Below are positions 9,334-61,754 of a stretch of DNA of 64,000 bases, one piece after another. The stretch's first letter is position 1; every line of letters begins with the position of its first letter. The notes beneath the pieces were generated by a model. It saw only the letters and a list, made by a program, of their open reading frames with translations, had not been told where the DNA came from and searched no databases. Source of the DNA: a virus (lineage: Duplodnaviria > Caudoviricetes); the IMG/VR virus record IMGVR_UViG_3300031857_023573, positions 128,001 to 192,000 of that record. One strand, 5' to 3'. The translations under genes and the position numbers were made by a program.

Positions 9334-9342
9334 TATATATTA
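9334..9342 (-). promoter_or_regulatory. Putative late-promoter motif TAATATATA (bS21 operon)
   Basis: Exact motif 8 nt upstream of the 9325 start; recurs upstream of structural genes. Confidence 0.4.
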
Positions 9343-14560: not shown

Positions 14561-14569
14561 TATATATTA
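14561..14569 (-). promoter_or_regulatory. Putative late-promoter motif TAATATATA (gp14-like gene)
   Basis: Exact motif only 4 nt upstream of the ATG at 14556. Confidence 0.4.
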
Positions 14570-32108: not shown

Positions 32109-33181
32109 CTATTTTCAATTTTATTTTTTATTAATTGGCTCCACATCTCATAAATTTTTGATTTTCTTTTCATGTTGAATTCCTTCATTTGATTTGAAAT
32201 TTTATGCACATCGACTGTTTCTACTAATTTATTTAATTCTTCGAATGATGAAAAATAAGTGATGTAAGGCATCCAATTTTGATCATAAAAATCTGAGAAT
32301 TGTAGCCAATGTTCAACAGCATCTAAATTGTTGTAGTCATTTGGGTCAAATTTTTCTTTGTAATCTATAAAAGATTTATTAGCTAGACCAAAGTAGTTGT
32401 TCCAAGATACTTCTTTTAAAACACTATATTTTTTTTCTTTGTAAATGTCCATCAAAAATTCTTTTGTTGGAAAAAATAATGGTATGTTTGAAGTATATTG
32501 TTCAAATATCGACATATAAGAAATTTGATATGGAATATGTATGATGCCTTTAAACTTTATTAAGTCGTTATGTGTGTGTGATTTAAATATTTCGTCTTTG
32601 TGTTTTATTTTATCACCTTTTATTTCTGATATTTTATCTCTAGAATAATAAATGAAGTAATTATCATTTGGCTCATAATATGAATTATAATAATCACAAA
32701 TACTTGGTATGTGTTCAACTTCTCTCTCTATGAAATGTTCCATATAGTATTTGTCGTAGAGGTTATTAGCGACTAATATTATTTTACCGGAGTCGACTCC
32801 TTTCCTTAGGAATTCGTTAAATAAATTCCAATCTTCTTTTCTGAATGAAAAAGGCCACTCATATCTTATTGGATTGTTGATAATTATGGGCTTTTCAAAT
32901 TTTTCATATAAAAGTGAAAAAGTTGGAGGGTAAGTCACAATGAAGGCGTCAACTGAATTTAGTTGATCTTTATAATAAAAGTGAAACTCCTCTGAAAATT
33001 GTTTAGGTGACAAATGCATCCATCTGCCATTATCAAGCATCGGAACACTGTCTTTTTTTCGGTTGAAGACCCATGTGTGTTCTGATAAAGATAAGTCCTG
33101 AACTTGATGTCCAAGTTCAGTAAATATTTTTTTCATATCCGCAATTATAGATATATGTAAATCGATATTAAAAAAGTTCAT
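32105..33181 (-). CDS. Putative GT-B glycosyltransferase
   Basis: C-terminal KGIIHIPYQISYMSIFEQYTSNIPLFFP resembles a GT-B nucleotide-binding helix; island context. Confidence 0.5.
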   Translation of the reverse strand: MNFFNIDLHISIIADMKKIFTELGHQVQDLSLSEHTWVFNRKKDSVPMLDNGRWMHLSPKQFSEEFHFYYKDQLNSVDAFIVTYPPTFSLLYEKFEKPIIINNPIRYEWPFSFRKEDWNLFNEFLRKGVDSGKIILVANNLYDKYYMEHFIEREVEHIPSICDYYNSYYEPNDNYFIYYSRDKISEIKGDKIKHKDEIFKSHTHNDLIKFKGIIHIPYQISYMSIFEQYTSNIPLFFPTKEFLMDIYKEKKYSVLKEVSWNNYFGLANKSFIDYKEKFDPNDYNNLDAVEHWLQFSDFYDQNWMPYITYFSSFEELNKLVETVDVHKISNQMKEFNMKRKSKIYEMWSQLIKNKIENR

Positions 33182-33870
33182 TAAATGAGATTTATTTTTT
33201 CGTATTGCAAAATTATTTTCCAGTATTCTGGATGCCTTTGATCATTTTCATCGAAAATATCACCGACATATTCATAATTATTTCTTATAGTTGGAAAATT
33301 TCTTATTTCTCCTCCAAATTTCAAATTAAATTCAGAATGTTCCATACAATTATCTATGACTAAAGGATAGATACAACTTCCCAAAAAATCTTGATCTATT
33401 CCCTTTTTTTGGAACTTTCCCCATTTTTCAATCAATTTTATTAGACCAATTTTTCTCATAAGTCCGTTTCTACAACCCCACATTCCTCCTAGTATAGGCA
33501 CTGTGTGATATGGATGATCTCTCATAATATGAAAATCTTTATCAGATTCTATCCATTCTTTAATAGCATAGATTTCCCTATCCGAGAATCTTGAGTCACA
33601 ATCTCTTGATAAGAAAATATTAACATCTGAATCTTCAGCTGTCCAGAATCTCCAGAACATTCCATGAAAATCGTCTTTTGGACTTACTAGTTCTATTTCT
33701 ACATTATCTCCCTTGATAGTCTCTATAAGTTTTTTATCACACTTTTTGTCTATAAAAAACTTACAGATCCATCCTGGGAAATACTTTTTTGCAAGTTCTA
33801 TATTTCTAATAGCCCCAACCCAATACATAGGGTGATCTCCCCAGAGACTGAAAGATATTATATTTCTCAT
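33181..33870 (-). CDS. Putative GT-A glycosyltransferase
   Basis: ISFSLWG, GMFWRF, SRDCDSR (DxD), MRDHPYH, ILGGMWG, DQDFL; island context. Confidence 0.55.
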   Translation of the reverse strand: MRNIISFSLWGDHPMYWVGAIRNIELAKKYFPGWICKFFIDKKCDKKLIETIKGDNVEIELVSPKDDFHGMFWRFWTAEDSDVNIFLSRDCDSRFSDREIYAIKEWIESDKDFHIMRDHPYHTVPILGGMWGCRNGLMRKIGLIKLIEKWGKFQKKGIDQDFLGSCIYPLVIDNCMEHSEFNLKFGGEIRNFPTIRNNYEYVGDIFDENDQRHPEYWKIILQYEKINLI

Positions 33871-34508
33871 AAATAAGTTGTATTTTTGAAAGTTTCATTC
33901 TCAACTATTAGATATCCACATCTATCATTTAATTCATCTAATAATATTGTATATCCTTCTCTATTAATTAACTCTTCACGTATTTTTTGACACTTTAACT
34001 GATTGGTGTCATCTAAAATTATAAATCTAGCTCTGTGTCCTATCTTTAAATACTCAGGATATGTTGTAAACTCACCACCATCTAAAATAAGTAAATCAAT
34101 TCGTTTAGGTATCAAGTCAATTTTATTCTCAACCAATCTGAGATTATATAAATCCTCATTTAGCCATTCTCTCTTACTACCAGCGTGATAGTATCCTTCA
34201 GGGCTGTTAAAATATTCATCCCAATTCATCCAGTTTAGATCATCTTCGTCTATTATTCTACCGAGAATTATGTTGAAATTTTTAGGAAATTCTCTTTGAA
34301 TAGCCTGATAATACATCTTTTCATTCGTCTCTAAGGAATATACTGTGTAGTTTTCTTTGTTATTATCAACTATAGATTTTCTGATACATTCAGTTGAACC
34401 GTAACCATTCCAGGTTCCTATTTCAACTATGTTATTTATATCTTTTCTAGAAACTAGATCATATATATACTTTCCAAGTTTTGAATCTAAATTTATTTGT
34501 CCTTGCAT
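33867..34508 (-). CDS. Class I SAM-dependent methyltransferase-like protein
   Basis: IVEIGTWNGYGST, IDLLILDGG, IILDD. Confidence 0.7.
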   Translation of the reverse strand: MQGQINLDSKLGKYIYDLVSRKDINNIVEIGTWNGYGSTECIRKSIVDNNKENYTVYSLETNEKMYYQAIQREFPKNFNIILGRIIDEDDLNWMNWDEYFNSPEGYYHAGSKREWLNEDLYNLRLVENKIDLIPKRIDLLILDGGEFTTYPEYLKIGHRARFIILDDTNQLKCQKIREELINREGYTILLDELNDRCGYLIVENETFKNTTYL

Positions 34509-34515
34509 AATATTT

Positions 34516-35187
34516 CTAAATATTTTTTATGTAGATTTGATATGGCATTCCATTTTCACCTATTCCCGGTCTTGAAGTAGTTTGACCATAAAATATAGGT
34601 ACGTCGTCAACAATATTTTTGAAATTTAAATCATTATCTTTTAGAATGTTGTATATTTCTAACCAGTCTTTTGCGAAATGACATTCAATTACTGCAAATT
34701 TACAATTTTTTAAGGTTTTTAATCCTCCTTTTATGACTTTTAATTCAGCTCCTTCTACATCTATTTTGATATAATCTACTTTTTTTCCTTCAAAATATTC
34801 ATCCAGTGAAACCGATTTAATATTACCGATCAGATTCATTTTACGATAAGCAGTGTCGTGTCCAACAATATTAGATGTATGATTTCCAGAGTTTAGACTA
34901 TCACCATAAATATCAACTTGACCTGAACTTTCAGATACTGCAACATTTTCTATTATGCAGTTTTCAGATTGTAGATATTTAATTGTTTCAAAATTATATG
35001 GATTTAATTCAAAAGAAAAAACCTGGCCGTTCCTACCAGCTAATCTTTTGAAAAGTCTTGTGATGACACCATTACAGGCACCAACATCACAAAAAACTCC
35101 ACCAGTTGACGTATTTTCTTCGAATTTGATAGACAACAAGGTGTCCCAATCGTTTATTTGTATTCTATATTTCTCCCAAGCTTCCAT
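34516..35187 (-). CDS. FkbM-family methyltransferase
   Basis: FCDVGACNG, FELNPYN, VSLDEY, DYIKIDVEGAELKVIKG. Confidence 0.88.
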   Translation of the reverse strand: MEAWEKYRIQINDWDTLLSIKFEENTSTGGVFCDVGACNGVITRLFKRLAGRNGQVFSFELNPYNFETIKYLQSENCIIENVAVSESSGQVDIYGDSLNSGNHTSNIVGHDTAYRKMNLIGNIKSVSLDEYFEGKKVDYIKIDVEGAELKVIKGGLKTLKNCKFAVIECHFAKDWLEIYNILKDNDLNFKNIVDDVPIFYGQTTSRPGIGENGMPYQIYIKNI

Positions 35188-46393: not shown

Positions 46394-46402
46394 TATATAT
46401 TA
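46394..46402 (-). promoter_or_regulatory. Putative late-promoter motif TAATATATA
   Basis: Exact motif 24 nt upstream of ATG 46369. Confidence 0.45.
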
Positions 46403-47827: not shown

Positions 47828-47852
47828 AAAAAAACCCACCGAAGTGGGTTTT
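47828..47852 (-). terminator. Rho-independent terminator with cUUCGg tetraloop after the SSB gene
   Basis: Minus strand AAAACCCAC-TTCG-GTGGGTTTT followed by a T run. Confidence 0.88.
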
Positions 47853-47873: not shown

Positions 47874-48839
47874 TCACATATCTGCGAAGAAATCATCCTC
47901 ATCTTCTGCCTTACTCGAAGAAGATGACGAAGAAGAAACAATTGATTCTTCAAAGTCAAAATCATCTGAAGTTGGTTTTGATTCAGTCTTAGAAGATACG
48001 AATCCTTGTGAAGACTTACCTGTCATAAAACCGATAATCTCATTGATTTTTCCCTGTTGAGTTTCGTCAAGTCTCTTAGGACCGAAATCTTCTAAATCGT
48101 GATCACGATCAACCAAGAAATCTTTAACCATAGTTTGAGCCTTAGCATCAATTTTACCATCTACGAGAGGTGCATTTTTGAAAATACCCTTTTCTTTGAA
48201 GTAAATTGGAAGAGAAGAAGCCTCTGGTTTAAACATAGACATTTTATAGTCTGGATATGTTTCATCACCAGTTTGAATTTCTTTTACCAAAAGAACAAAA
48301 TCCTTACCAGCTGAAAGATCAAATACATTACAAGAAACTCCTGAAATTTCTCCATTCTTTTCTGCTGAAATTTTATCTTTAATAGTCTTTCCGTATTGGA
48401 AAATCATAATTTTACCAACTAATTCAGGTTGTTGCTCGTCTTCAAGTACAAGTACATAAGAGTAATACTTTTTAGAGTATTTCAACATTTTTGCTCTTTC
48501 TTGAAGAATAGCATTTTTAGAATTAGTCAATTGGTAGTAAAGATCACTAAGAGCACACTTTTCACCAAAGTTCTTTGGACTATCAAAATATCCACAAAGT
48601 TCTTTTTGGTTTTTAATGTCTACATAGTGACTAATTTTTTCAAGAGCAAGTTGACCAACTTTACCTTCTTTTGTCAAATTTGGTAGGAATCGAACTACCG
48701 ATCGATATCCCTTTTTCTTGTCTTTTACTTTTGACAAATCAATACGATAGATACCATCAGTATTTGTTTTTGTCTGTTCATTCAAAAAATCCATTTTTGA
48801 ATCTAAATTGCCGAATAAATCATCATTCATTTCTGCCAT
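47874..48839 (-). CDS. Single-stranded DNA-binding protein, T4 gp32-like
   Basis: VVRFLP, EKCALS, KKYYSYVLVLED...GKIMIFQYGKTIKDKI, FDLSAGKDFVL, YPDY; acidic tail SSSSSSSKAEDEDDFFADM. Confidence 0.85.
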   Translation of the reverse strand: MAEMNDDLFGNLDSKMDFLNEQTKTNTDGIYRIDLSKVKDKKKGYRSVVRFLPNLTKEGKVGQLALEKISHYVDIKNQKELCGYFDSPKNFGEKCALSDLYYQLTNSKNAILQERAKMLKYSKKYYSYVLVLEDEQQPELVGKIMIFQYGKTIKDKISAEKNGEISGVSCNVFDLSAGKDFVLLVKEIQTGDETYPDYKMSMFKPEASSLPIYFKEKGIFKNAPLVDGKIDAKAQTMVKDFLVDRDHDLEDFGPKRLDETQQGKINEIIGFMTGKSSQGFVSSKTESKPTSDDFDFEESIVSSSSSSSSKAEDEDDFFADM

Positions 48840-48887: not shown

Positions 48888-48916
48888 ATTTATATCTTAC
48901 CCTATTGAAAAAGTTT
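48888..48916 (-). promoter_or_regulatory. Putative promoter AAACTTT-N15-TATAAAT for the SSB gene
   Basis: Minus strand reads AAACTTT TTCAATAGGGTAAGA TATAAAT. Confidence 0.45.
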
Positions 48917-49507
48917 AGTCAAAGTTGGAGTCAAACTTCCTTGTTCAAAAATTTGACAAAGTTTTCTATACTCATCATCGGAAACTCTCACAAAGGTTCC
49001 TTCAAATCCACATCGTGTCACTGCTTCGCCGGATTTTTCATCGATCCAATCTTCTGTCCACAGAGATTTTACTGGTCTAAATTCAGTTTGTGAGTACAGA
49101 GTTTTTAAACAATCTATTAGAATTGGTAATTTTTCTTTTTTAAATAGATATTCTTCAAAGTGTATGAATAAGAATTCATAACCGGATTCTTTACCAGATT
49201 CAATTAATTTTATTTTGCTTTCAGAGTCTAGATTAATTCTTATAAGTTTCGGACGTGTCGACAAGAAATCCGAACAATACTCTAATCGATGGTTACTTGT
49301 TTCAGTATCTAAAATATTTATCAATTTGTTGGTAGCACTTGACCAGTGCGTATCTTTAAAATAAAGATATCCATAGTCATAATCATCGATAAATGTGTCT
49401 ACTTCATCAGTAAAATCATAAAAGTAACTTTTAATTTCCTCTAAGTCAGGAAATTTGTCACTAAAGTTTTCAGATTCAAAAAGGTTAAATTTTTTTATAA
49501 TCATCAC
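48902..49507 (-). CDS. Hypothetical protein with N-terminal KKFNLFES motif
   Basis: 201 aa; member of the N-terminal motif set. Confidence 0.65.
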   Translation of the reverse strand: MMIIKKFNLFESENFSDKFPDLEEIKSYFYDFTDEVDTFIDDYDYGYLYFKDTHWSSATNKLINILDTETSNHRLEYCSDFLSTRPKLIRINLDSESKIKLIESGKESGYEFLFIHFEEYLFKKEKLPILIDCLKTLYSQTEFRPVKSLWTEDWIDEKSGEAVTRCGFEGTFVRVSDDEYRKLCQIFEQGSLTPTLTKLFQ

Positions 49508-50367
49508 ATTTTAAGTAAAATTTTTAAATCATAATCGTTAATATTTGGCAAATCTGCCTTCCATGGCCAAATTACGTCTTCATAGTCAAGTTCAGATAGA
49601 AGTGAAGGCATAACTTCTTCAAATCGAGTAGTTAATTCTTTTCCATCAATCTGATTATCATAATAAGCACTTATTCCGATATAAATTCCTGGTCTATAAA
49701 GTTCAAGTGAATTTTCTAAGTTATATTTCTGTTTATCATCTAGAAATCTACTAAGAGCTGATTGTGAGATTTTATCAATCTCTTCAATTTTAAATTTAAT
49801 CTTAGATATATTTTTCATAGACCACTTTGGTGAAGTTACATATACTTCATCATATGTTGTTCTTGATAGAAAAGTTCCTGATCTGGCACCTGCACTTGGT
49901 CCTTGTGCAATAAAAAGAGTTGATGAGAGTAAGCCTACCAAAAAATGTGAAATTAAAGACAGTTTCTCTGAGTTATCAATATTTTTACAGGTTATTAATC
50001 CGTTATATCTTCGTAATATATTCGACACATGAATGTCAACGTCAGCATATAGTGTACAAAGTGTCACAAATTTTGATTCCACAAATAGATATTCATCAAA
50101 TATATCTAATAATTTATCCTTTATAAAATCTAAATCGACATTTCCTAAACTTTGAACCAATTTTGTAAAATGACTGTCTATTTTACTCCACTCACCTTCT
50201 CCTAAAAAATGATTTACTTGGTTTTTTAGGTCTGACTCATTAATAGTCGAATTTAACATATATTTTTTGAGTGTATTAAACCACTCATATATAGAACCAA
50301 ACTCTGTATCAGTTCTATCTTGCCACATATCTGACTCTAAGAATGAATTATATTTTTTTATTTTCAT
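49504..50367 (-). CDS. Hypothetical protein with N-terminal KKYNSFLES motif
   Basis: 287 aa; member of the N-terminal motif set. Confidence 0.65.
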   Translation of the reverse strand: MKIKKYNSFLESDMWQDRTDTEFGSIYEWFNTLKKYMLNSTINESDLKNQVNHFLGEGEWSKIDSHFTKLVQSLGNVDLDFIKDKLLDIFDEYLFVESKFVTLCTLYADVDIHVSNILRRYNGLITCKNIDNSEKLSLISHFLVGLLSSTLFIAQGPSAGARSGTFLSRTTYDEVYVTSPKWSMKNISKIKFKIEEIDKISQSALSRFLDDKQKYNLENSLELYRPGIYIGISAYYDNQIDGKELTTRFEEVMPSLLSELDYEDVIWPWKADLPNINDYDLKILLKM

Positions 50368-50906
50368 ATTTCTATGGTTAGATCTGTATTGTTCGGTCTA
50401 GTATAAATAACTTTATTTACATTATTAAAATTATACTTATAATTTGGATCACAATATTTCTTTCCACATCCTGGTTTAGTATAAGCAAGTGTTATATGTG
50501 GATTATATTCTGGATACTTATCACTATTTGGAATACTAGACTTTAACTTATTATGTAAGTTAAGTAGATTATCATTTCGATCAACATTGAATTTTACAAC
50601 ATCATATTTAGGATTTTCAAAAAGGTCTATACCGTTAATATTCACTTCTAACTTATCTTTTAGAACTTCTCTTAAAATCGATTCTACTTCACTAACATCA
50701 ACGACACTTGTCACTGGGTAAAGTAGAGTCAAATGTGGGTGTTCTTGAATGCCATAGTTGTCACCTTCAGTTTCTTGATATAAATCATCTGGATTTATTT
50801 GTGATGTCAAGTCTTTCCAATTTTCGACTGGTACATGAACCATCACACATCCGTGATCATATCCTTGTGACTCTAGAAATTTTTCATATTTTAATAAAAA
50901 CTTCAT
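50364..50906 (-). CDS. 2H phosphoesterase (Acb1/T4 57B-like or LigT-like) with N-terminal KYEKFLES motif
   Basis: Two HxT motifs: HPHLTLLY and YNPHITLAY. Confidence 0.8.
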   Translation of the reverse strand: MKFLLKYEKFLESQGYDHGCVMVHVPVENWKDLTSQINPDDLYQETEGDNYGIQEHPHLTLLYPVTSVVDVSEVESILREVLKDKLEVNINGIDLFENPKYDVVKFNVDRNDNLLNLHNKLKSSIPNSDKYPEYNPHITLAYTKPGCGKKYCDPNYKYNFNNVNKVIYTRPNNTDLTIEI

Positions 50907-50907
50907 A

Positions 50908-51420
50908 CTATTTTAATTTAGTTTTGAAAGGACTCTTCAGGTGTTTAAGATTCCATCCAGGAATAAAATCTTTATTCTTTTTTTCAAAATCTTCATAAGA
51001 TTCAATTCCACTATCTACACAGTTTCTCTCGTATCCTAAGTTTGCTCCTTTTAATTTTGGAACACGGTCATCAATAGTAGTTGATTTTGTTGCTTTTCTT
51101 ATTTTTTCTAACTGCTTTACAGTTGATTCTCTCGGAAGTGCGCCTTCATTTTCTGACATAACAACTTCAATTGTACCATCTTCTTTAAATTTAGCGAAGT
51201 GAAATCTATCAACTATTGGTAATACTTTACCGACTAATTCTGATTCAATACTTTCTGGGCCAAAAGATTTAATAAATTTTCTACCGTTATCGTCTATAAC
51301 GAAGTCAAAATCTTGACCTGGATTTTTTTCAATAAGTGCTTTTATTCTGCTTTTTATTGATATAAACTCGTCAACTTTAGCTCCTTTGTAAGCTTTAAGT
51401 CTTGCTCTGATAATTTTCAT
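50908..51420 (-). CDS. Hypothetical basic protein
   Basis: 170 aa; first gene after a TAATATATA motif. Confidence 0.6.
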   Translation of the reverse strand: MKIIRARLKAYKGAKVDEFISIKSRIKALIEKNPGQDFDFVIDDNGRKFIKSFGPESIESELVGKVLPIVDRFHFAKFKEDGTIEVVMSENEGALPRESTVKQLEKIRKATKSTTIDDRVPKLKGANLGYERNCVDSGIESYEDFEKKNKDFIPGWNLKHLKSPFKTKLK

Positions 51421-51445
51421 TTTAAAAATATAATTTTAATTAGTT

Positions 51446-51454
51446 TATATATTA
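51446..51454 (-). promoter_or_regulatory. Putative late-promoter motif TAATATATA
   Basis: Exact motif 25 nt upstream of ATG 51420; heads the run containing three N-terminal-motif proteins. Confidence 0.45.
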
Positions 51455-51466
51455 AATGGTCTCTTC

Positions 51467-51494
51467 AAACTTTCTCACATCTTAAACTATAAAA
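51467..51494 (+). promoter_or_regulatory. Putative promoter AAACTTT-N14-TATAAAA
   Basis: Upstream of ATG 51517 and guaC. Confidence 0.4.
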
Positions 51495-51516
51495 TAGGTC
51501 TAAATATTTTATCAAA

Positions 51517-51831
51517 ATGAAAAGTGAAATTAAAATAGAATTTTCAAATAAAAAAGAACTGAAAAAACTTATCGATAAAGCTTACTTCGAGAATGGATAT
51601 AAAGGTAAACTTCTTACAAGTGAAAATTTTATTGAAATTACTCCAGAGGTAGACGATGTTCTTTACTCAGTAATTAAAGGTCTCAATAACGCAACAATTA
51701 AAGTCTCAAATTTAGATATAATCGACGGTAACTGTAGATTTATCGTAGATGATACAGGAGAAAATCCTAAAATCTATCCCATATCGATGTATTGTATTAT
51801 TGATGATAATAAAAAATATATCTTTTATTAA
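51517..51831 (+). CDS. Hypothetical protein
   Basis: 104-aa ORF upstream of guaC. Confidence 0.6.
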   Translation: MKSEIKIEFSNKKELKKLIDKAYFENGYKGKLLTSENFIEITPEVDDVLYSVIKGLNNATIKVSNLDIIDGNCRFIVDDTGENPKIYPISMYCIIDDNKKYIFY

Positions 51832-51834
51832 AAT

Positions 51835-52794
51835 ATGAAAAAATTTGATTTCGAAGAGGTTAACCTCGTGCCTAAAAAATGTGTTGTTGAGTCAAGAAGC
51901 GAGTGTGACTGTGGAGTAAATTTTGGAAAATTTACCTTCAAGCTTCCGATTGTTCCTGCAAATATGGAATGTGTGATCAATGAAGAAATCGCAATAAAAC
52001 TCGCAAAATCCGGATACTTTTATATCATGCACAGATTTGGAACTAATCCAGTTTCATTTACCGAAAAAATGAAAGAGTTAGGATTAGTTAGTTCAATCTC
52101 ACTTGGTGTCAATATCGACTCTTATGATACAATCGATGAAATTCACCTGGCAAATCAAGTAACTGGCTCAGACTATAGTCCAGATTTCATTACAATCGAT
52201 ATAGCACACGGCCATTCCATAAAAATGGAAAAAATGATTAAATATATCAAAGAAAAATTACCGAACACATTTATTATTGCTGGAAATGTCGCCAGTCAAG
52301 AAGCAATTAAAGATTTAGAAGAGTGGGGAGCAGATGCAACAAAGGTTGGAGTGGGTCCTGGTAGTGCATGTACAACTTGGCCTACAACTGGATTTGGTTC
52401 TAGAAATTGTCAAGCCTCAACTGTATATGAATGTTCACTTGTTGCTACAAAACCAATAGTTGCAGATGGTGGAGTTAGAGTTCCAGGTGATATTTCAAAA
52501 TCTCTAGTACTAGGAGCAACTATGGTAATGATAGGAGGAATGATGTCAGGATTCAAAGACTCTCCTGGCCATCTAGTTGATGTAAATGGGACTATAAAGA
52601 AAGAATTCTGGGGATCAGCCTCAAAGTTTCAAAGCGGTAAGACAAATAGAATTGAGGGAAAGAAAGTACTAATTGACTACAAAGATCGATCTATCTTAGA
52701 TGAAATGAAATACATCGAAGAGTGTCTTCAAAGTTCAATATCTTATGCTGGTGGTAAAGACCTGTCAGTTTTTAATACGGTAAAGTGGATTTAA
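51835..52794 (+). CDS. guaC: GMP reductase
   Basis: LPIVPANMECVI, YFYIMHRF, ITIDIAHGHS, IAGNVA, KVGVGPGSACTT (catalytic Cys), ADGG, EFWGSAS. Confidence 0.9.
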   Translation: MKKFDFEEVNLVPKKCVVESRSECDCGVNFGKFTFKLPIVPANMECVINEEIAIKLAKSGYFYIMHRFGTNPVSFTEKMKELGLVSSISLGVNIDSYDTIDEIHLANQVTGSDYSPDFITIDIAHGHSIKMEKMIKYIKEKLPNTFIIAGNVASQEAIKDLEEWGADATKVGVGPGSACTTWPTTGFGSRNCQASTVYECSLVATKPIVADGGVRVPGDISKSLVLGATMVMIGGMMSGFKDSPGHLVDVNGTIKKEFWGSASKFQSGKTNRIEGKKVLIDYKDRSILDEMKYIEECLQSSISYAGGKDLSVFNTVKWI

Positions 52795-53030
52795 ATCATG
52801 TTCCACAACTCAGTTTCGATATCTTTGTCAATTAAAGAATTATCAGAGTTGATCAATTCGAGTAAGTTGCTCATTTTAGTTTCTAAAATTGACCACTCTT
52901 TAGAAGTATAGATCTCAGAGAGATCATCATTATGTCTAATTGAGTCAAAAGGAAATTGAAATCCATCAGGAGTGACAAAAATTTGTGAGCAAATTTCTAC
53001 AAAAGATTCTTTTAACTTTTCTTCATTCAT
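52791..53030 (-). CDS. Hypothetical protein
   Basis: 79-aa acidic ORF. Confidence 0.55.
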   Translation of the reverse strand: MNEEKLKESFVEICSQIFVTPDGFQFPFDSIRHNDDLSEIYTSKEWSILETKMSNLLELINSDNSLIDKDIETELWNMI

Positions 53031-53065
53031 TCTTCTAATATACTAAAATTTTAGAGATTGTCAAC

Positions 53066-53563
53066 CTAAATATCAATAATTTTTATAACATCTAGTCCCT
53101 TTCTACCCGGTAATACTGTTATAATATTAATTTCATATTCATTCTTTAACCATTTTTCTAAGTTAAATTCGAAAATTATAGAAATATTATATTCTATTGA
53201 ATAAATTGAATATCTACCAGTATTAAGAACATCTTTTCCTAAATAGTCTGGAAAGATTATGTTTACCGTTTCTCTAAAGAAATTATTAAACTCCTCAACT
53301 GTCCTAAAAGTGGTTCTATCAGATATTCTTTTCTTTAAATCATGTTTAGATGTATCATTCCAATTTATTTTAAATTGAACTTTTTTATTATTAACTCTTT
53401 TTTTCAGAGTAATAAACTTTACTAGATTTTTGTCAAAATCAAAAGTAACATCTTTTAATTTCTGTATTTCAGAAGAAACATTATCATCTTTTGAGGACTT
53501 GATATTAAGTACATCACTTAATCTTACCTCATTGAACTTTTTGAATTTATATAGATGTTTCAT
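53066..53563 (-). CDS. Hypothetical protein with N-terminal MKHLYKFKKFNE motif
   Basis: 165 aa; directly downstream of the gp13-like gene. Confidence 0.65.
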   Translation of the reverse strand: MKHLYKFKKFNEVRLSDVLNIKSSKDDNVSSEIQKLKDVTFDFDKNLVKFITLKKRVNNKKVQFKINWNDTSKHDLKKRISDRTTFRTVEEFNNFFRETVNIIFPDYLGKDVLNTGRYSIYSIEYNISIIFEFNLEKWLKNEYEINIITVLPGRKGLDVIKIIDI

Positions 53564-53584
53564 TGTATTAAGTATCCATCCAGT

Positions 53585-54364
53585 TCACTTTTTCACAAGA
53601 TAAAAGAAACTTGAATTCGATTGTCCTTTAATTTCCTCCTCTGCTTCCTTAATTTCGTCTTTTCCTTGAGACATAATGTCAGCTGAATTGATTTTTACGC
53701 CACCTGGCAAAACGTAATCATAACGACCAGTCAAATTAGCATATTGAACTTTTGCCCATCCAGTAACATATTTTACAAAAAGATCGTCTTTAAACAAATA
53801 TTCAGCTGGAATATTCGCATAAGCCTCAAGGATCACATCGTATTTTACATTAGTAAGTATGTGAAGTCTGTGATGTAATTGATTAAAATGATATTTGAGA
53901 GTGTACTTATTCAACTGATTCATCATATCACTCATTGAATCAAGTATAGTTTTATATACTCCGAGTTCACCGATTGTTGTTACATATGATGATAAATAAG
54001 GCTGATTTGTAACCCCTAAATTTACTGATAAGTTAGGTGTATTAATACCGAGTTGAAATAAACTTTCACCTCTTGCTTCGTAGAGATAAACAACACTTTG
54101 TATTTCACAAGGTACAGTAACGTATCTATATTTTGTAAATTCTTCAGTTTGAAAGGCTTCTTTGTGAACTAGAAAATACATTTTTTGTACTGAATACTGG
54201 TAATTACGGTAGAAGTATGGTAGAGCTCTAGTCTCAATAATTCTTCTGATTTCAGAATCTGGTAAAACTTTTGGAAGTGCGCATCCTACTGTTAGTTCAT
54301 TTTGAACAAAGTCTATAAACTCTTCTATTGTGTAACCACTTTGATAAGGTACGTAATCAGACAT
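53585..54364 (-). CDS. Neck/head-tail adaptor protein, T4 gp13-like
   Basis: C-terminal FVKYVTGWAKVQYANLTGRYDYVLPGGVKINSADIMSQGKDEI parallels gp13 (WVKDYATALAK...MLPGGVTID). Confidence 0.75.
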   Translation of the reverse strand: MSDYVPYQSGYTIEEFIDFVQNELTVGCALPKVLPDSEIRRIIETRALPYFYRNYQYSVQKMYFLVHKEAFQTEEFTKYRYVTVPCEIQSVVYLYEARGESLFQLGINTPNLSVNLGVTNQPYLSSYVTTIGELGVYKTILDSMSDMMNQLNKYTLKYHFNQLHHRLHILTNVKYDVILEAYANIPAEYLFKDDLFVKYVTGWAKVQYANLTGRYDYVLPGGVKINSADIMSQGKDEIKEAEEEIKGQSNSSFFYLVKK

Positions 54365-54382
54365 TTAGTTATTAATTTTATT

Positions 54383-54391
54383 TATATATTA
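54383..54391 (-). promoter_or_regulatory. Putative late-promoter motif TAATATATA (gp13-like gene)
   Basis: Exact motif 18 nt upstream of ATG 54364. Confidence 0.45.
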
Positions 54392-54453
54392 GATTTATAA
54401 ATCAAGAAACAAATCACCGACATTTTATATATAACAATAAATGTTAAAAATCT

Positions 54454-56259
54454 ATGAGAGACCTAATTATTGAAATGGCGAATAGAAATATAGGATCTTT
54501 AGTTTTATTTTTAAAAAATCCTAAAAATCATCTTTACATAGAGTATATAAATAAAAATATACCTATTGAGGTACAAGATTTACAAACATCAGAAAAAATA
54601 TATTACTTTGTTAATGATTTAAAGAGTATACATCTCTGTAGTTGCGGGAAACACAAGTCTTTCATTGGATTCAAAAATGGATATCGACAAACTTGTGGTG
54701 ATATGAAGTGCACAGTTAATAAAAGGAGAGAAACATGTATTCAAAAATGGGGTGTGGATAATCCGAAAAAATCTAAAGAGGTTATTGATCGTGAAAAACA
54801 GAATATTTTAGATAAATGGAATGGTGATCATTACATGAAAAATGAACAAGTGAGAAAAAAGTTCAATAGTACAATGGTTGAAAGATGGGGTGTCGAATGG
54901 GCTCAACAATCTGAAGAGATATCAAATAAAAGTAGAGAGACTTTTGAGAATAATGATAATAGAGAACAAATAATTGAAAATAGAACCAGTTCACTAATTA
55001 ATAAATCGAAATCAGAAAAGAAACAAATAGAGCAGAAGAAAAAGAAGACAATAGAAGATAAATTTGGAAGTTACGATAATTTTGTAAATTTTAGAAATGA
55101 TAAAATAAGACAAAAATCTTTGAAAAATTGGGGAGTTGATCATCACTTGAAAAGTAAAGAGATCATTGATAAACGTATTGAGTCTTATAAATTCAATATT
55201 GTTTCGAAAATTAAAGAGAACTTACCAGAAAATATCATCTTTATTGACAAGCGGGAAAATCTAAATAAGACTGATTCAGTTTTAAGATTTATGTGTAATA
55301 ACTGTTCAAATGAATTTGAAATGAATAGACAATTGTTTCAATTCAGAAAACTATCTAAAGAAGAAATTTGTATTAACTGTAACCCAATATTGGTTGGAAA
55401 ATCAAAGAAAGAAGGAGAAATTTTCGAATTTATTAGTCAGGTCTATAGTGGTATAGTTCTAAGAAATCATAAAGGTATAATTTCTAAAGAGCTCGATATA
55501 TACATACCTGATTTGAAGTTATCATTTGAATTTAATGGACTTTATTGGCACTCAGAGCTTTATCGAGATAAAAATTATCATCAAGAAAAGTCTAAAGAAT
55601 GTATTAATAATGGTATAGAACTAGTACACATCTGGGAAGATGAGTGGGACTTCAAAAGTGAAATAATTAAATCGATGATACTAAATAAATTAGGATCATC
55701 GAAAAAGATATGGGCGAGAAGTTGTGAAGTCAAAGAAATTGAAGATAACAAATTAATTACTGAATTCTTAAATAAAAATCATATCCAAGGAAGTGTCGGG
55801 TCCAAATATAAAATTGGTCTATTTTATAATGATGAATTGGTCTCGTTGATGACATTTGGTAATCTAAGAAGATCATTAGGCCATAAATCTAAGACTGATC
55901 ATTATGAATTAATTAGGTTTTGTAACAAATTAGGAGTGAGCGTTATCGGAGGTGCTTCTAAATTACTGAGTTATTTTATAAAAAAATATAATCCAGTAGA
56001 ACTACTAAGTTACTCAGATAACTCAAAAGGTCTAGGTGGTCTTTATGAAAAACTTGGATTTGAACTAGTAGGTGAAACTGAACCAAACTATTATTGGGTA
56101 GTGGATGGCTTTAGAAAACATAGATTTAACTTCCGAAAAGACAAGTTAGTCAAAAATAACTTTGATAAAAATAAGTCAGAAGTTCAAATTATGACAGAGA
56201 TGGGATATTATAGAATATTTGATTGTGCTAGTAAAAAATGGTCAAAAAAAATAATTTAA
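54454..56259 (+). mobile_element. Free-standing homing-endonuclease-like gene (Hef/Vsr-like nuclease domain with WGVxx DNA-binding repeats)
   Basis: Repeats KWGVDNP, RWGVEWA, NWGVDHH; CSCG and CxxC...CxxC Zn motifs; ELDIYIPDLKLSFEFNGLYWHS...LVHIWEDEW nuclease core; C-terminal domain ending RIFDC. Confidence 0.75.
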
Positions 56260-56307
56260 ACAAACCATATGAATTGTGTCTATAAATAATAAAAATATAC
56301 CCAAAAT

Positions 56308-57420
56308 ATGAAAACTATTGGTCTATGTATGATTGTAAAAAATGAGGCTCACGTTATCACAAGATGTATTGAGTCAGTAAAAAGAATCATAGACTATGTT
56401 TTAATTGTCGATACTGGTTCAGACGATGGAACTCCTGAGACAATTCAGAATTGGTTGGTAGAAAATAATTTTCCTGGACAGGTGGTAATTGAACCTTGGC
56501 AAAATTTCGCCTATAATCGTTCTTTCGCACTTGCAAAATTAAGAGAAGTCGAGCATATTGATTACGCATTAATGATTGATGCTGATGAGATATTGGTTTT
56601 CAATGAAGACTTTAATCCTGAATCTTTTAAAGAGTCACTTTGGGCGGATATCTATGACATTACCACTAATATGGGTGGTTTCATTTATAAAAGGCCTCAG
56701 CTTACTTCAAATCGTAGAATGTCGAAATATGATGGTGTAGTTCATGAGTTTTTATCACTTGAGGATGGTGGGTCAAGAGACCATGCAAATGGATTTCACA
56801 ATAGTCCAATTCAAGATAGTGCAAGAAACAGAAGTGGAAATAAATTTGAAAATGATGCTAAACTTCTTGAAGAAGCTCTGAAGGGTGATATTTCAGATTG
56901 GTTCAGATCAAGATATACCTTTTACTTAGCACAGTCTTATAGAGATTCTGGTAGACCTGAGTTGTCATTAGAAAAATATTTAGAAAGAGCAGACCAAGGT
57001 TTTTGGAATGAAGAAATTTATGTGAGTCTATATAACGCTGGAAATATCATGAAAGGTCTAAACTATCCGAAGGATCAAATTCTTCAGACTTATTTAAGAG
57101 CGTATGAGGTTTGTCCTCATAGAGTTGAAGTTCTTCACGCGGCCGTACAATATTGTAGAATTCACGGTATGAATCAGCAAGGATATATGATCGGAAAACA
57201 TGGTATAACAATTCCCCTTACTGATACATCTCTTTTTGTTGAGTCATGGGTTTATGATTATGGACTACTTGATGAATTTTCGATTGTTGCTTTTTGGGCA
57301 GGTCATTTTGAAGAGTCTAAAACTGCCTGTGAGAGACTCTTAAACGAAGGTAAAATCCCGGCACATTACATGGACAGGGTTAAATCAAACCTACAATTTG
57401 CCATTGACAGGCTTAGTTAA
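56308..57420 (+). CDS. GT2 glycosyltransferase with C-terminal TPR-like repeats
   Basis: [40 protein letters not shown] (DxD), [17 protein letters not shown]. Confidence 0.88.
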
Positions 57421-58465
57421 AATTCTCTGATTCTTTTAGAGACATTAGAATTTCCCTCTCATTATCATTAATTTGTTGAGGAACTTTCAAATTCATTTTA
57501 ATGAATAAATCTCCTGTTTGACTATTGAAATTTAAGTCGGGTACTCCTTTTCCAGTAACTCTGAGCACTTTTCCGTGAGTTGTTCCTGGTTGAACAGAGA
57601 ATTTGATATCACCTTGAGGTGTTTTCAAGAAAACTTCTTTTCCTAGAATAGCATCGACAATATTGATATCTTGTTCATAGACAAGATTATTATTCTCTCT
57701 CTTGAAATTTTGATCTGGAATTTCTTCTACGGTGACTAGAAGATCACCCGGTATACCACCTTTCACAGCATTTCCAAACTGATTTAAATTAAATGTTGCC
57801 CCATTAAATGATCCTTTTGGTATTTGAATATCTACGGTTTCTTCTTTTGGTATAACACCTTCTCCTCTACAGTTATTGCAGTTTGTTCTTACAATTTGTC
57901 CAGCTCCGTTGCAAGAATTACAAACAACTATTTGTTGAATTACACCAAATGGTGTATTTTGAACAATTTTTCTTTGACCAGAACCATGGCATACTCCACA
58001 AGTGGTTAAATCTTTTCCTCCGACACCATCACACATTGTGCAACTGGTGTGTCTGTTGTATTTAACTTTTTTTGAAAGACCGTTTATTACATCTTGTAAA
58101 GTAACGGTAACTTTCACTCTTAGATCTTGACCTTTTCTAGTCTGTGGTCTTTGACGGCCTCCTCCGCCAAATCCAAAAAAGTCTCCAAATCTAGAGAATA
58201 TATCATCCATACCAAATCCAGAGAACGGATTGCCTCCTCCGTGATTATCACCAACTGTTCCATAAGTATCATATTGTTGTTTTTTCTGAGGATTTGACAA
58301 AACGTCAAATGCCTCAGCACACTCTTTGAACTTTTCTTCAGATTGAGCGTCTCCAGGATTTTTATCTGGATGATATTTCATAGCTTGTTTTCTATAAGCC
58401 TTTTTAATATCATCAGCAGATGCTGATCTGTCAACTTCTAATATTTGATAGTAATCTTTACTCAT
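57413..58465 (-). CDS. dnaJ: Canonical type I DnaJ chaperone
   Basis: J domain with HPD, G/F region ([10 protein letters not shown]), four CxxCxGxG repeats, full C-terminal domains. Confidence 0.95.
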
Positions 58466-58506
58466 ATTATAAACTTTTTATTAAATTTTATTCAAAAACT
58501 ATACCA

Positions 58507-59067
58507 TTATAGACCTAAATGATTATTGAGTTTAGTATCTCTTATTTCACTTTGAATATCACTATTGGTCTTCTCTAAGGCATATTTTAATTTCCCTGCA
58601 ACATAATTTTCAACTATTAGTGTCATTATTTCAGTAGTTGAGTCTAAATTTTCAAAGTCATTTAGTGCCTTTGAATTCTTTTTAAACTTATCAGATAGTT
58701 CTGTTAGGAATTCTTCTAAGTTAAATTGTAACTGATAGAGTTCGAGTCGTAAGTCTTTTACAGTTTTTAAATACTGGTTTGTAGGATTGAATAATCCGGG
58801 TAAATCTATAAAAAATTTAGAATAAACTTTTCTTACAGTGGGTAAGACATATTCGAGTCTATTATTTCCTTCTGGATTTATCTCAGTTTTATTTATTGTT
58901 TTAGTAAATAACTTATGTTCAAAAAGTCTGTAATGAGTATTAATTGTTTCTTTAAAGAACTTTCTCAGAGAGATCGAATCTTGCTCGTTTTTTAATCCTC
59001 TTAATAGTGTATCTAATAAAACAACATTATCTAAATCTTTAAGTGATTTTGGATTTGAAAAAATCAT
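58507..59067 (-). CDS. Hypothetical protein with C-terminal IRDTKLNNHL motif
   Basis: 186 aa; lies between grpE and dnaJ. Confidence 0.65.
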   Translation of the reverse strand: MIFSNPKSLKDLDNVVLLDTLLRGLKNEQDSISLRKFFKETINTHYRLFEHKLFTKTINKTEINPEGNNRLEYVLPTVRKVYSKFFIDLPGLFNPTNQYLKTVKDLRLELYQLQFNLEEFLTELSDKFKKNSKALNDFENLDSTTEIMTLIVENYVAGKLKYALEKTNSDIQSEIRDTKLNNHLGL

Positions 59068-59567
59068 TTAGATAGTATAATTTTTGGATATCTAAAAGGT
59101 TTCCCATCTATTGTATACCCTTTAGATATAACATCAATTATTTTTTCCTCACCGGTTTCTAGAACTGATATTACTTCGTGTAAATCGGAATCATAAGTCT
59201 CGGTTTGAATTTCCTCAATTCCTTCATTTTTAAGAAACGTACTAACTTTATTTAAGATAATATTTAATCCTTCTGAGTCAGAGATAGATTTTCTAGCAAT
59301 AGATAGGTCGGAATCTAAATCTAAAATTGAGTTAAGTGTTTTAATTTTAGTATTTAAAATAAGTTCACTTTTTTCTTTTTGAACTCTTTTTTTAAAATTT
59401 TCAAATTCAGCATAAAGTCTTACATAGGAATCATGTCCTTTTTTCTCTGCAAATTCATCAAGTAGGTCATTTAAAACTATTTCACTATCTTCTCCAAGTG
59501 AAATTTTGTAGACCATTTCTTCATCTTGTAGTAACTTTTTTTCTTTTAAAAATTCTTTTGTGTCCAT
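59064..59567 (-). CDS. grpE: Nucleotide exchange factor GrpE
   Basis: YVRLYAEFENFKKR, LHEVIS, DVISKGYTIDGKPFRYPKI. Confidence 0.88.
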   Translation of the reverse strand: MDTKEFLKEKKLLQDEEMVYKISLGEDSEIVLNDLLDEFAEKKGHDSYVRLYAEFENFKKRVQKEKSELILNTKIKTLNSILDLDSDLSIARKSISDSEGLNIILNKVSTFLKNEGIEEIQTETYDSDLHEVISVLETGEEKIIDVISKGYTIDGKPFRYPKIILSK

Positions 59568-59568
59568 A

Positions 59569-60054
59569 TTAATAATTAAATGATAGTAATTTTTTTACGT
59601 TATTTGATACAACGAATTCATAAGTTCCGAATTGATCTGAGACTTTAAATATCTCTAAATCTTCAATTTTAACTTTAAATTCTTCAATATAGTCGATTAA
59701 TTCTGTTAAAGACTTTTTATAGATAGCATCTGGTACCCAATAGTCTGGAAACTTATCTATGAATTTATCAACAAAAATCTCTAAAGTCTTTTTTCTTATT
59801 AGTACTTGTTGATTGTTGTTTATTGAACGATTTGATAAAAAATCTACTATATGTGTATTGAACTTATGAATTAAGTTATCTGTTTCAATAACTTTCAGTA
59901 TTCCAATTACAAGCGCATCTCTTTCAGAGATTTCTACTTCTTTGTTTTCCTTTAGGATCTTTTCACCTTCTTTGTCACTTCCAACTACATAGTAGACGAA
60001 ATGATCCCATACACATCTTCGCACTAAATCCTCAGGAAAAATTGTAATTTTCAT
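59569..60054 (-). CDS. Hypothetical protein
   Basis: ORF-track frame; ATG at 60054 (MKITIFPED) preferred. Confidence 0.6.
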   Translation of the reverse strand: MKITIFPEDLVRRCVWDHFVYYVVGSDKEGEKILKENKEVEISERDALVIGILKVIETDNLIHKFNTHIVDFLSNRSINNNQQVLIRKKTLEIFVDKFIDKFPDYWVPDAIYKKSLTELIDYIEEFKVKIEDLEIFKVSDQFGTYEFVVSNNVKKLLSFNY

Positions 60055-60217
60055 TCTTGAAATATATTTTATTTTTATAAGTAAAAATAGTGTCAAAGTT
60101 TATATTATACTGTCAAAAACAAAAACTAACTTTTTTTAAAAAATAACGTTTTTTAAATATAGAAATGGTATATATACGTTATTATAAAAAATAACAAAAA
60201 AATAACTATTTAATGAA

Positions 60218-60466
60218 TTGAAAGACCTCATCCAAACTGAGATTGACACACCTGACGGTGTCGCTCTACTTGAACAAATTTACATAACAGAACTAGGTCA
60301 CGTAATGGCGAGAGTTTATTATAAGAAAAAAGGAATCAGAATAAATAAACGATTGACAAATTTAGAGGAATTACTCCAAAATACCGGACTCAGTGTTAAA
60401 GATGAGGAAACAATGAAGTTAAAGAAGTTAAGAGCAAAAAGAGTTTACAAAACAACTTATGGCTGA
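60218..60466 (+). CDS. Hypothetical protein
   Basis: 82 aa, TTG start, preceded by GTATATATA. Confidence 0.55.
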   Translation: MKDLIQTEIDTPDGVALLEQIYITELGHVMARVYYKKKGIRINKRLTNLEELLQNTGLSVKDEETMKLKKLRAKRVYKTTYG

Positions 60467-60488
60467 CTGACAAATCAAAACTTAAACA

Positions 60489-60497
60489 TAATATATA
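60489..60497 (+). promoter_or_regulatory. Putative late-promoter motif TAATATATA
   Basis: Exact motif 21 nt upstream of ATG 60519. Confidence 0.45.
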
Positions 60498-60518
60498 CTT
60501 TAAATCACGAACTTGAAA

Positions 60519-61754
60519 ATGTATAAATTTAAGGAGTTTTTAATTGAAAAGTCTTTAGAGAGTTTGATTCTAGAATCTAGAATTTCATTTTCTAAAGACT
60601 TTTTTAGATTACTTTCTAGTATAAAAAATCCTCTTGCTAAAAAAATTCTTAAACTACAGGGTGAAGATATAGATACTACTTATAACTACATAGATATAAC
60701 TGATCAAAATGATATGGTTAGTTTCACACCAGATAGAAGAGCTCAAGATTTTATAAAAGACAAAGAAGAACTTTATGAGGTTGTAATGGATAATAAGTAT
60801 TTAACAAACTCTCAAAGTAATCAGTCCGTATTCGATAGACTTGGGCATGAAAGAGTAGAAAATGTATGGCAGCCAAGAATGGGCACTTTAGGAAAAATAG
60901 TATCAACTACTTATGGCAGCAGTGGTAAAATTTATGTACTATTTCAGGGTATAGGTGAAAATTCTGATAAAAAGACAGTTTTGAACTTTGTGGCTATCAA
61001 ACCAATAAATGAGGAGTTTGTTAAAATTTGGCAGACTTCAAGAAATAACATTAAAGTAGGTAGAATAATCAAGGCTCTTGTAAAGAGTTTAGATATTGAT
61101 GTTTCAGATTCAGAAATTGAAAAGTTTGTAAATGAATACAAATCTCTTATGGAGATTATGAAAGACGCATTTAAGAAATTTGATGTTGTTGAAGGTGATG
61201 ATATTGCTAGATTTTATAAAATCGAAAACTATGCTGATCAAAATAAAGGCACACTTGCCAACTCTTGTATGGCTGAGAGACCTGAAAGTACTTTCTACAT
61301 ATATGTGAATAATCCAGAATCTTGTAAACTTCTTGTACTATATGCAGATGGTGGTGAAGTAAAAGATGGGAAATACAAATCAAATAAAATTGTTGGAAGA
61401 GCAATTCTTTGGACCACTAGAAGTGGAGATAAATTCTTAGATAGAATCTATACAAATAATGATAGTGATGTGGATTTATTTAAAAAGTTTGCTCAAGAAA
61501 ACAATTGGTGGACTAAACAAAGACAAGACTCAAGTAACGAATTTAAAGTTGAAAGAGGTGGTGAATTAAAACCCGCTAAATTTATAGTTGATTTACAAAA
61601 ATGGGATGAAGAGTTTCCATATTTAGACTCACTTTCTTTCTTTAATCCAGTCACTGGTGAATTAAGTAATCAAGCGAGAACTATAAATGCAAAATGGGAA
61701 CTTCTTTCGACAAGCGGAGATTATAATGAATTATGGATTGAGGACGAAGACTAA
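60519..61754 (+). CDS. Hypothetical protein with N-terminal KFKEFLIE motif and a C-terminal SCM...GRAILW...DRIY domain
   Basis: ATG 60519 (or TTG 60513); no family can be assigned confidently. Confidence 0.65.
   Translation: MYKFKEFLIEKSLESLILESRISFSKDFFRLLSSIKNPLAKKILKLQGEDIDTTYNYIDITDQNDMVSFTPDRRAQDFIKDKEELYEVVMDNKYLTNSQSNQSVFDRLGHERVENVWQPRMGTLGKIVSTTYGSSGKIYVLFQGIGENSDKKTVLNFVAIKPINEEFVKIWQTSRNNIKVGRIIKALVKSLDIDVSDSEIEKFVNEYKSLMEIMKDAFKKFDVVEGDDIARFYKIENYADQNKGTLANSCMAERPESTFYIYVNNPESCKLLVLYADGGEVKDGKYKSNKIVGRAILWTTRSGDKFLDRIYTNNDSDVDLFKKFAQENNWWTKQRQDSSNEFKVERGGELKPAKFIVDLQKWDEEFPYLDSLSFFNPVTGELSNQARTINAKWELLSTSGDYNELWIEDED

Follow-up and report, generated by a model that had tools for sequence, protein, structure and literature searches.

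A shared N-terminal tag on otherwise dissimilar proteins of Mahaphage-type huge phages as a probable T4-type prohead-targeting leader

Why should proteins that have nothing else in common begin with nearly the same ten residues? The question is raised by a stretch of viral DNA of 64,000 nucleotides (IMG/VR record IMGVR_UViG_3300031857_023573, positions 128,001 to 192,000; Duplodnaviria, Caudoviricetes), referred to here as the window, with a G+C content of about 30%. Five of its open reading frames (ORFs), lying between positions 48902 and 61754, share an N-terminal tag which, according to the original prediction, resembles the capsid-targeting sequence (CTS) of the internal proteins of phage T4. 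Judging from sequence comparisons, the tag is probably, though by no means certainly, a portable prohead-targeting leader of the T4 type, removed by a protease and expanded to about 9% of the ORFs in the clade to which the window belongs.

Each of the five N-termini was found where the original prediction had placed it, namely MKIKKYNSFLES (50367, minus strand), MKFLLKYEKFLES (50906, minus strand), MKHLYKFKKFNE (53563, minus strand), MYKFKEFLIEKSLES (60519, plus strand) and M(M)IIKKFNLFES. Four of the starts stand as given; for the ORF with the last of these tags, the ATG at 49504, which yields MIIKKFNLFES, is likelier than the GTG at 49507, because it overlaps the upstream stop codon as TGATG. 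The ORFs of 411, 165 and 180 residues have the same starts in public gene calls on the same DNA. All tags start at Met and carry Glu at residue 10-12, [FY]-x-x-F and the Glu being present in five of five, and the P3 position is occupied by L in two (L-F-E, L-I-E) and by F in three (F-L-E twice, F-N-E). Stripped of their tags, the five bodies showed no mutual similarity by BLAST (all E > 0.9).

Among GenBank phages, the window has a sole DNA relative, LR745206.1, an uncultured Mahaphage of 634,780 bp, in which 440-476 kb is syntenic with 40-64 kb of the window; Mahaphage genomes measure 634-735 kb and their predicted hosts are Bacteroidetes (PMC7162821). Several metagenome samples also contain the window DNA, on contigs that reach 221 kb. 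LR745206.1 was analysed whole, with crude ORF calls (942 ORFs), and a position-specific scoring matrix (PSSM) of 10 columns was trained on its N-termini only and then applied to the window. There, the five tagged ORFs were the top five of 66 N-termini (scores of 9.7-17.1), the next one, a lipoprotein signal peptide, scored 6.3, and only 3 of 18,878 internal positions reached 10 or more. Such a profile scan had been proposed together with the original prediction, and besides ranking its five ORFs at the top it brought out far more tagged ORFs in the relatives. Scores above 10 were obtained for 46 of the 942 N-termini of LR745206.1 versus 14 of 168,910 internal windows, and the enrichment of the tag at the N-terminus over internal positions is about 600-fold.

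The motif was controlled by permuting residues 2-16 of every N-terminus, and by the Tenacibaculum phage PTm1, which is T4-like, has a Bacteroidetes host and a G+C content of 29.7%. In the window, 5 matches were observed against a mean of 0.6 expected, with a maximum of 3 in 200 shuffles; the corresponding values were 75 against 4.8 in LR745206.1 and 37 against 2.3 in an independent IMG/VR genome of 385 kb (G001). PTm1 gave only 2 PSSM matches in 331 ORFs. Since the AT-rich PTm1 and the shuffled sets are nearly empty, the motif is not an effect of composition, and a chance origin of the five window tags is excluded. In LR745206.1, dozens of ORFs begin with MKYLKxYK(I/L)FES or MIKK(Y/W)xQFI(N/K)ES; of 126 pattern matches, 94 have the Glu at residue 10-13, and across the clade 90 of 126 have I, L or F at P3. 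The tag is borne by 8-9% of the ORFs of the relatives, that is, by 40-85 proteins per genome. An exact degenerate DNA pattern for MK[HY]LKxYK[ILM]FE retrieved 64 stretches from IMG/VR, all AT-rich and on contigs of up to 476 kb, and some IMG/VR contigs have arrays of 5-8 tagged genes.

The comparison with T4 rests on well-described processing events. The first 10 residues of the T4 internal protein IPIII are enough for packaging, with residues 4 and 7 governing targeting and residues 8 and 10 governing processing (PMC9026906), and the protease gp21 trims short N-terminal peptides off internal proteins, 65 residues off gp23 and 10 off gp24 (PMC9958956). The tags retain aromatic-x-x-aromatic, then I/L(/F), then Glu, which are the four positions shown by the IPIII mutagenesis, and MYKFKEFLIE of the window aligns with the T4 leader MKTYQEFIAE at each position. 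The proposed likeness to the CTS is thus borne out in the aromatic pair three apart and the Glu at P1, and at P3 in those tags that have I/L there. A T4-derived heptad pattern, [FYW]xx[FYW][ILV]xE, is enriched 7-11-fold at the N-termini of LR745206.1 and G001, and the matrix trained on LR745206.1, when applied to T4, places gp61.1, IPIII, IPII and the scaffold protein gp22 within the top five true N-termini. Upstream of T4 gene 61.4 there is also a CTS-like heptad, which was discarded because it lies outside the annotated ORF. The uncharacterised gp61.1 (AF158101, 18966-19130, 54 residues) begins with MKTFKEFIKE and fits the megaphage tag matrix better than the IPII and IPIII leaders; by this resemblance, it may be a packaged protein of T4 that has gone unrecognised.

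Relatives of the window also provide a protease. The head genes of LR745206.1 comprise a T4-type portal (Portal_T4, 194.7 bits) and a capsid protein (Gp23, 88.7 bits), with an ORF of 707 residues between them (198546-200669), whose counterpart in G001 lies at 32744-34882. Its first 170 residues are a gp21-family protease, for which hhalign against T4 gp21 gave a probability of 95.7% and an E value of 1e-8; in LR745206.1 the domain keeps the motifs NRNxRxY, GExxHP and SSRGxG, and matches the PTm1 protease by BLAST with E 2e-20. The Pfam S77 scores of the relatives' protease, 18-26 bits, are just below the cut-off, and a phmmer search of the LR745206.1 domain against PDB sequences returned nothing relevant, the gp21 link needing profile-profile comparison. 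The rest of the ORF is scaffold-like and contains 11 copies of YSEY[LI]AE with a period of 14 residues; patterns of this type occur at a proteome-wide internal rate of 3e-4 per residue. The protease-scaffold fusion, with 10-14 copies of [YF]xxY[ILV][AG]E and the same period, was present in seven of the seven Mahaphage-type relatives examined, the repeat being kept in the most distant of the Mahaphages examined, at 65-70% protease identity. In metagenomes, the fusion has more than 3,800 homologues, and the contigs bearing them reach 816 kb. The 735-kb phage LR756501.1 has, at 11437-11802, a second protease domain, diverged from the first (40% identity, in an ORF of 181 residues), which recalls the prohead protease paralogue described in SPN3US (PMC5694885).

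Each 14-residue scaffold repeat holds an (I/L/V)-A-E site, and the repeat YSEYIAE differs from the core of the T4 leader, YQEFIAE, at two positions. In the 52,209 residues of T4 itself, the heptad pattern occurs only 15 times, 3 of these occurrences being established gp21 sites (IPII, IPIII and gp23), with the gp23 match FGSFLTE ending at Glu65; T4 gp22 has SIFE/S, ELFE/S and EWLAE/N (the slash marks the position of a putative cut here and below), which resemble the tag ends. The 10-column PSSM misses the scaffold repeats, as it rewards the Lys-rich front of the tag, and the link appears only with the T4-derived heptad. In PTm1 the scaffold lacks the heptad pattern, and the tag expansion is also absent. 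The likeness among repeat, tag and gp21 site leads us to regard the tag, by inference, as one copy of the scaffold repeat unit. A complex prediction with two copies of the whole scaffold-repeat region of G001 and the first 40 residues of a tagged G001 protein scored 0.00; it was run without controls and weighs neither way.

The portability ascribed to the tag by the original prediction is upheld by the diversity of what follows it. When the 95 tagged ORFs of LR745206.1 were clustered by their bodies (BLAST E < 1e-5 after tag removal), 88 unrelated clusters resulted, and the window bodies are likewise dissimilar. Most large tagged proteins of LR745206.1 have no Pfam family; those recognised include PPK2, a SMODS-associated NUDIX, a nucleotidyltransferase with a PolyA_pol head (CCA-adding type) and RNA ligase 1, and further families are a cyclase, NFACT-R, methyltransferases, a 2H/Acb1-like phosphoesterase, and DEDD and DHH domains. 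The tagged RNA ligase aligns to T4 RnlA only from residue 27, therefore the tag is an add-on to this enzyme. Within the tags, synonymous codons are used as in the genome at large, and W, Y and F replace one another at the aromatic positions; the constraint therefore acts on the peptide. The description of the tagged proteins as unrelated holds for the five window bodies and the 88 clusters, but is too strong for a subset with MKYLKxYKIFES, because about 14-20 of its 33 proteins share a second motif, D[IM][LF]xEL.D.G[FY], 10-20 residues past the tag. This second-motif subclass is, from its sequences, probably a diverged paralogue family. The module characterises small tagged proteins at several loci of LR745206.1 and at 310047-316752 of G001, and is also fused to the C-terminus of a 2H domain in P0126.

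Within the window, the five tagged proteins differ in how much can be said of their bodies. The tag MIIKKFNLFE (49475-49504, minus strand) opens ORF 48902-49504, of 200 residues, with a predicted cut after E10 (L-F-E/S), and MKIKKYNSFLE (50335-50367, minus strand) opens ORF 49504-50367, of 287 residues, with a predicted cut after E11; both have tagged orthologues in LR745206.1, with a body identity of only 28% for the former and of 29% for the latter. The third, MKHLYKFKKFNE (53528-53563, minus strand; predicted cut after E12), belongs to ORF 53066-53563, of 165 residues, directly downstream of a gp13-like gene. None of these three ORFs matched a Pfam or PHROG family, and they are regarded as orphans.

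ORF 50364-50906 (180 residues) is a LigT-type 2H phosphoesterase, tagged with MKFLLKYEKFLE (50871-50906, minus strand; predicted cut after E12). It matches Pfam 2_5_RNA_ligase2 (PF13563) with 50 bits, the cut-off being 27, has two HxT/S motifs (HPHLTL and NPHITL), and scores 23.7 bits with the Acb1 profile PF23474, under the cut-off of 27. The catalytic domain begins a few residues past the predicted cut, and the tag is found on all full-length relatives of this ORF, the LR745206.1 version being fused to a DEDD exonuclease. Just past the tag, Met22 (50841-50843, in GCVM) is invariant across the 2H family and is taken as the start in two database gene calls; it is conceivable, from this conservation, that an internal start there would produce an untagged, cytoplasmic 2H isoform.

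The leader of ORF 60519-61754 (411 residues), MYKFKEFLIE/KSLESLILE/S (60519-60575, plus strand), matches the T4 CTS position by position over residues 1-10. E19-S20 is invariant in 34 homologues, within an invariant L-x-E-S at residues 17-20, and is a candidate second cleavage site. Its family is constant in length and numbers more than 300 metagenomic proteins; the protein matched neither a Pfam nor a PHROG family. In an AF2 model (pLDDT 86), the leader is a separate, low-confidence N-terminal helix (residues 4-17), followed by an SH3-like barrel at residues 83-164 (VIA-align, Z 6.5) and by a C-terminal alpha/beta domain with weak GNAT-like matches only (Foldseek, E about 3e-3), which recurs in Cellulophaga podophages as a 'hypothetical protein'.

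The distribution of the tag among genes is selective. The original prediction had named a motif equally common on early and metabolic genes as evidence against itself; what was found is that core replication and structural genes are largely untagged. Homologues in LR745206.1 were identified for 24 T4 ORFs, among them polymerase, clamp loader, helicase, UvsX, UvsW, gp46/47, topoisomerase, RNR, terminase, sheath and portal, and the only one truly tagged is RNA ligase 1. Two further candidates, the homologues of gp41 helicase and UvsX, were rejected as false positives, arising from an internal GTG and from a conserved RecA N-terminal segment, respectively. Between the window and LR745206.1, identity is 28-48% for tagged orthologues and 76-79% for gp32, gp13 and DnaK beside them; immediately behind gp13, the two phages carry tagged genes that are unrelated to each other, the one in LR745206.1 beginning with MNHLIEFKVFE. 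On these comparisons, the tagged genes are fast-evolving and cassette-like. The same hyperplastic behaviour is known from the internal-protein genes of T-even phages.

A promoter-like box, TAATATATA, had been reported upstream of the tagged runs, and was confirmed for three of the three runs in the window. The box at 51446-51454 (minus strand) stands 25 nt upstream of ORF 50908-51420 and heads a run of ORF170, the 2H ORF, ORF287 and ORF200, in which three genes are tagged; that at 54383-54391 (minus strand) is 18 nt upstream of the gp13-like gene, which is followed by tagged ORF 53066-53563; and that at 60489-60497 (plus strand) is 21 nt upstream of the tagged ORF starting at 60519. In LR745206.1, T[AT]ATATATA occurs within 70 nt upstream of 48% of tagged and 17% of untagged genes (p 7e-10), or 73% versus 31% when counted by co-directional run. 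Among verified T4-like structural genes, 6 of 7 also have the box in front, compared with 3 of 15 genes of replication and nucleotide metabolism (p 0.007); the boxed structural genes are sheath, portal, protease-scaffold, capsid, gp13 and gp4-like, and the terminase is unboxed. Further TAATATATA boxes are present in the window at 14561-14569, 9334-9342 and 46394-46402. The box precedes 146 of the 942 ORFs of LR745206.1, with preferred distances to the start codon of 4-6 nt or 17-29 nt, and the shorter spacing would give leaderless or near-leaderless mRNAs.

The surroundings of the tagged genes are of T4 type in part. The untagged gp13-like neck protein (53585-54364, minus strand), a head-tail adaptor by PHROG and Phage_T4_gp13 by Pfam on the record, is 79% identical to its LR745206.1 homologue; it marks a T4-type virion module in the window, and both databases uphold the earlier statement that one tagged gene lies directly behind a gp13-like gene. 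An untagged single-stranded DNA-binding protein (47874-48839, minus strand), gp32-like by Pfam, adjoins the tagged run on its downstream side. Between its gene and the next one, a perfect hairpin of 9 bp, flanked on either side by T-runs (47831-47852), looks like a bidirectional terminator by its sequence. A large sugar-modification island is also encoded in the window, as is a phage DnaK-DnaJ-GrpE set, with DnaJ at 57413-58465, GrpE at 59064-59567 and DnaK from 62134, among which a tagged gene is interleaved. Farther away, an AAA+ ATP-dependent protease of 707 residues, ClpA/Lon-like (21330-23453; PHROG 4871, E 1e-230), is 70% identical to its homologue in LR745206.1. A protein of 601 residues (54454-56259), with DUF7487 and a weak Mom-like match on the record and without a homologue in LR745206.1, may be, on those matches, a DNA-modification enzyme.

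How would a T4-type leader of this kind operate? The tag would form a short amphipathic helix, with two aromatics three apart followed by (I/L/F)-x-Glu, which would mimic one unit of the scaffold repeat, join the prohead core by the same contacts and carry the attached protein in. The gp21-family prohead protease would then cut after the Glu while dismantling the scaffold, and the mature protein would stay behind in the head; ejection of the tagged proteins with the DNA would be a further step. The clade using such a device would be one of huge, AT-rich, T4-related phages (Mahaphage type, with predicted Bacteroidetes hosts), in which most tagged proteins are fast-evolving orphans and a few are enzymes acting on nucleotides or RNA. 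It is possible, although here we are more doubtful than confident, that Mahaphage-type phages load 40-85 proteins, about 9% of the proteome, by means of this leader, and inject with their DNA a 'starter proteome' for counter-defence and RNA repair; within that tentative picture, the 2H/Acb1-like, NUDIX, RNA-ligase, CCA-adding and methyltransferase enzymes would be part of the load.

Several observations weigh against a T4-type targeting leader. The gp21-family protease-scaffold was sought and found in the genomes of relatives of the window's phage, F stands in place of I/L at P3 in three of the five window tags, and the box is not exclusive to structural genes, being also present before PhoH-, SbcC- and sigma-like genes. 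The tagged set is acidic (median pI 5.0), unlike the basic internal proteins of T4, and includes cytoplasmic-looking enzymes, such as PPK2, the CCA-adding-type nucleotidyltransferase, RNA ligase 1 and methyltransferases. T4 gp61.1 has a CTS-like start, though it is not known to be packaged. The N-terminus shared by the MKYLKxYKIFES proteins could partly reflect common descent, given their second motif, and we know of no precedent for a tagged set of 40-85 proteins per genome. A literature search found no virion proteomics for these uncultured phages; nor did it find a report of such a tag in huge phages.

Other explanations were considered. The cytoplasmic substrates of many tagged enzymes would suit a docking helix for some other partner, unrelated to the capsid, such as the phage Hsp70 system, an AAA+ unfoldase or an intracellular phage compartment. 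Aromatic and hydrophobic residues flanked by Lys are reminiscent of Hsp70-binding peptides in general, and candidate partners are encoded nearby (DnaK, DnaJ and GrpE at 57.4-64 kb, the ClpA/Lon-like ATPase at 21330-23453). We nevertheless hold this to be unlikely, as docking would account neither for the invariance of the Glu and the terminal (I/L)-x-E, nor for the motif being identical with the scaffold repeat and the gp21 sites, nor for the preference of the tagged genes for the promoter-like box of structural genes. The link to the protease-scaffold would be accounted for equally if the leader were a substrate of the prohead protease without any delivery, either in transient components of the core or assembly, or as an inhibitory propeptide that times enzyme activity, and T4 offers a precedent in gp67, gp68 and gp22, core proteins that are lost after being cleaved into pieces (PMC9958956). 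The tagged bodies, however, are folded enzymes and diverse orphans, not coiled-coil and scaffold-like, and their fast evolution and cassette swapping look like those of host-interaction genes, so that cleavage without delivery appears improbable.

The least probable of the alternatives is that the shared start has no targeting role, being a paralogous N-terminal module, or a 5' cassette spread by recombination that would aid translation initiation in an AT-rich host without Shine-Dalgarno use. It would agree with the second motif shared by about 14-20 of the 33 MKYLKxYKIFES proteins and with the existence of tandem arrays; for the internal-protein genes of T4, the older T-even literature held that conserved leader DNA helps gene shuffling. 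What speaks against it is that codon usage within the tag is ordinary, hence the constraint is on residues and not on RNA, that the tag is retained even when the body behind it has been replaced or is down to 28% identity, that it stands on clearly unrelated enzyme folds, and that PTm1, of the same base composition and host phylum, lacks it.

If the T4-type targeting leader is the correct explanation, a motif of 10 residues would list the head cargo of uncultured huge phages from metagenomic sequence alone, a list that normally requires purified virions and mass spectrometry. The internal-protein device of T4 would then scale from a handful to dozens of cargo species, and the tagged ORFs would constitute a pool of fast-evolving candidate counter-defence proteins. 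To our knowledge, the binding partner of the T4 CTS in the core has never been defined; identity between tag and scaffold repeat would offer a testable account of how the CTS works. Such tags could also broaden the T4-style tools for protein packaging.

The closest known system is the T4 CTS, which is likewise N-terminal, directly after Met and about 10 residues long, with aromatics at 4 and 7, I/L at 8 (where three of the window tags have F) and Glu at 10, and is borne by otherwise unrelated, fast-evolving proteins of a phage whose T4-type head module has a gp21-family protease. The differences are of scale and composition: T4 has three to a handful of such proteins, whereas these phages have 40-85 (8-9% of ORFs), with two sub-consensus forms, MKYLKxYK[IL]FE/S and MIKK[YW]xQFI[NK]E/S, and with a putative cargo that is mostly acidic and includes enzymes; moreover, the protease is here fused to a repeat scaffold that has the same heptad as its unit. 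Phages phiKZ, 201phi2-1 and SPN3US also have large capsids with tens of internal protein species, and many of their head-internal proteins are cut after Glu by a T4-related prohead protease (PMC5694885). Their motifs, however, are (S/A/G)-x-E or A-x-E, the propeptides are mostly of 20 to more than 100 residues and share no 10-mer, and in SPN3US only 8 of about 50 head proteins are processed. In encapsulin cargo loading and scaffold-mediated loading, a short portable peptide similarly sends unrelated enzymes into a shell of the HK97 fold, but encapsulin peptides mostly sit at the C-terminus, are not cut off by a protease, are unrelated in sequence, and involve no co-packaging or ejection of DNA. 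Finally, the Dar system of phage P1 (DarA, DarB, Hdf) supplies a parallel for head-packaged and ejected counter-defence (anti-restriction) proteins, whose incorporation needs head-assembly factors; it follows an ordered dependency between proteins, in contrast to the single shared leader peptide described here.

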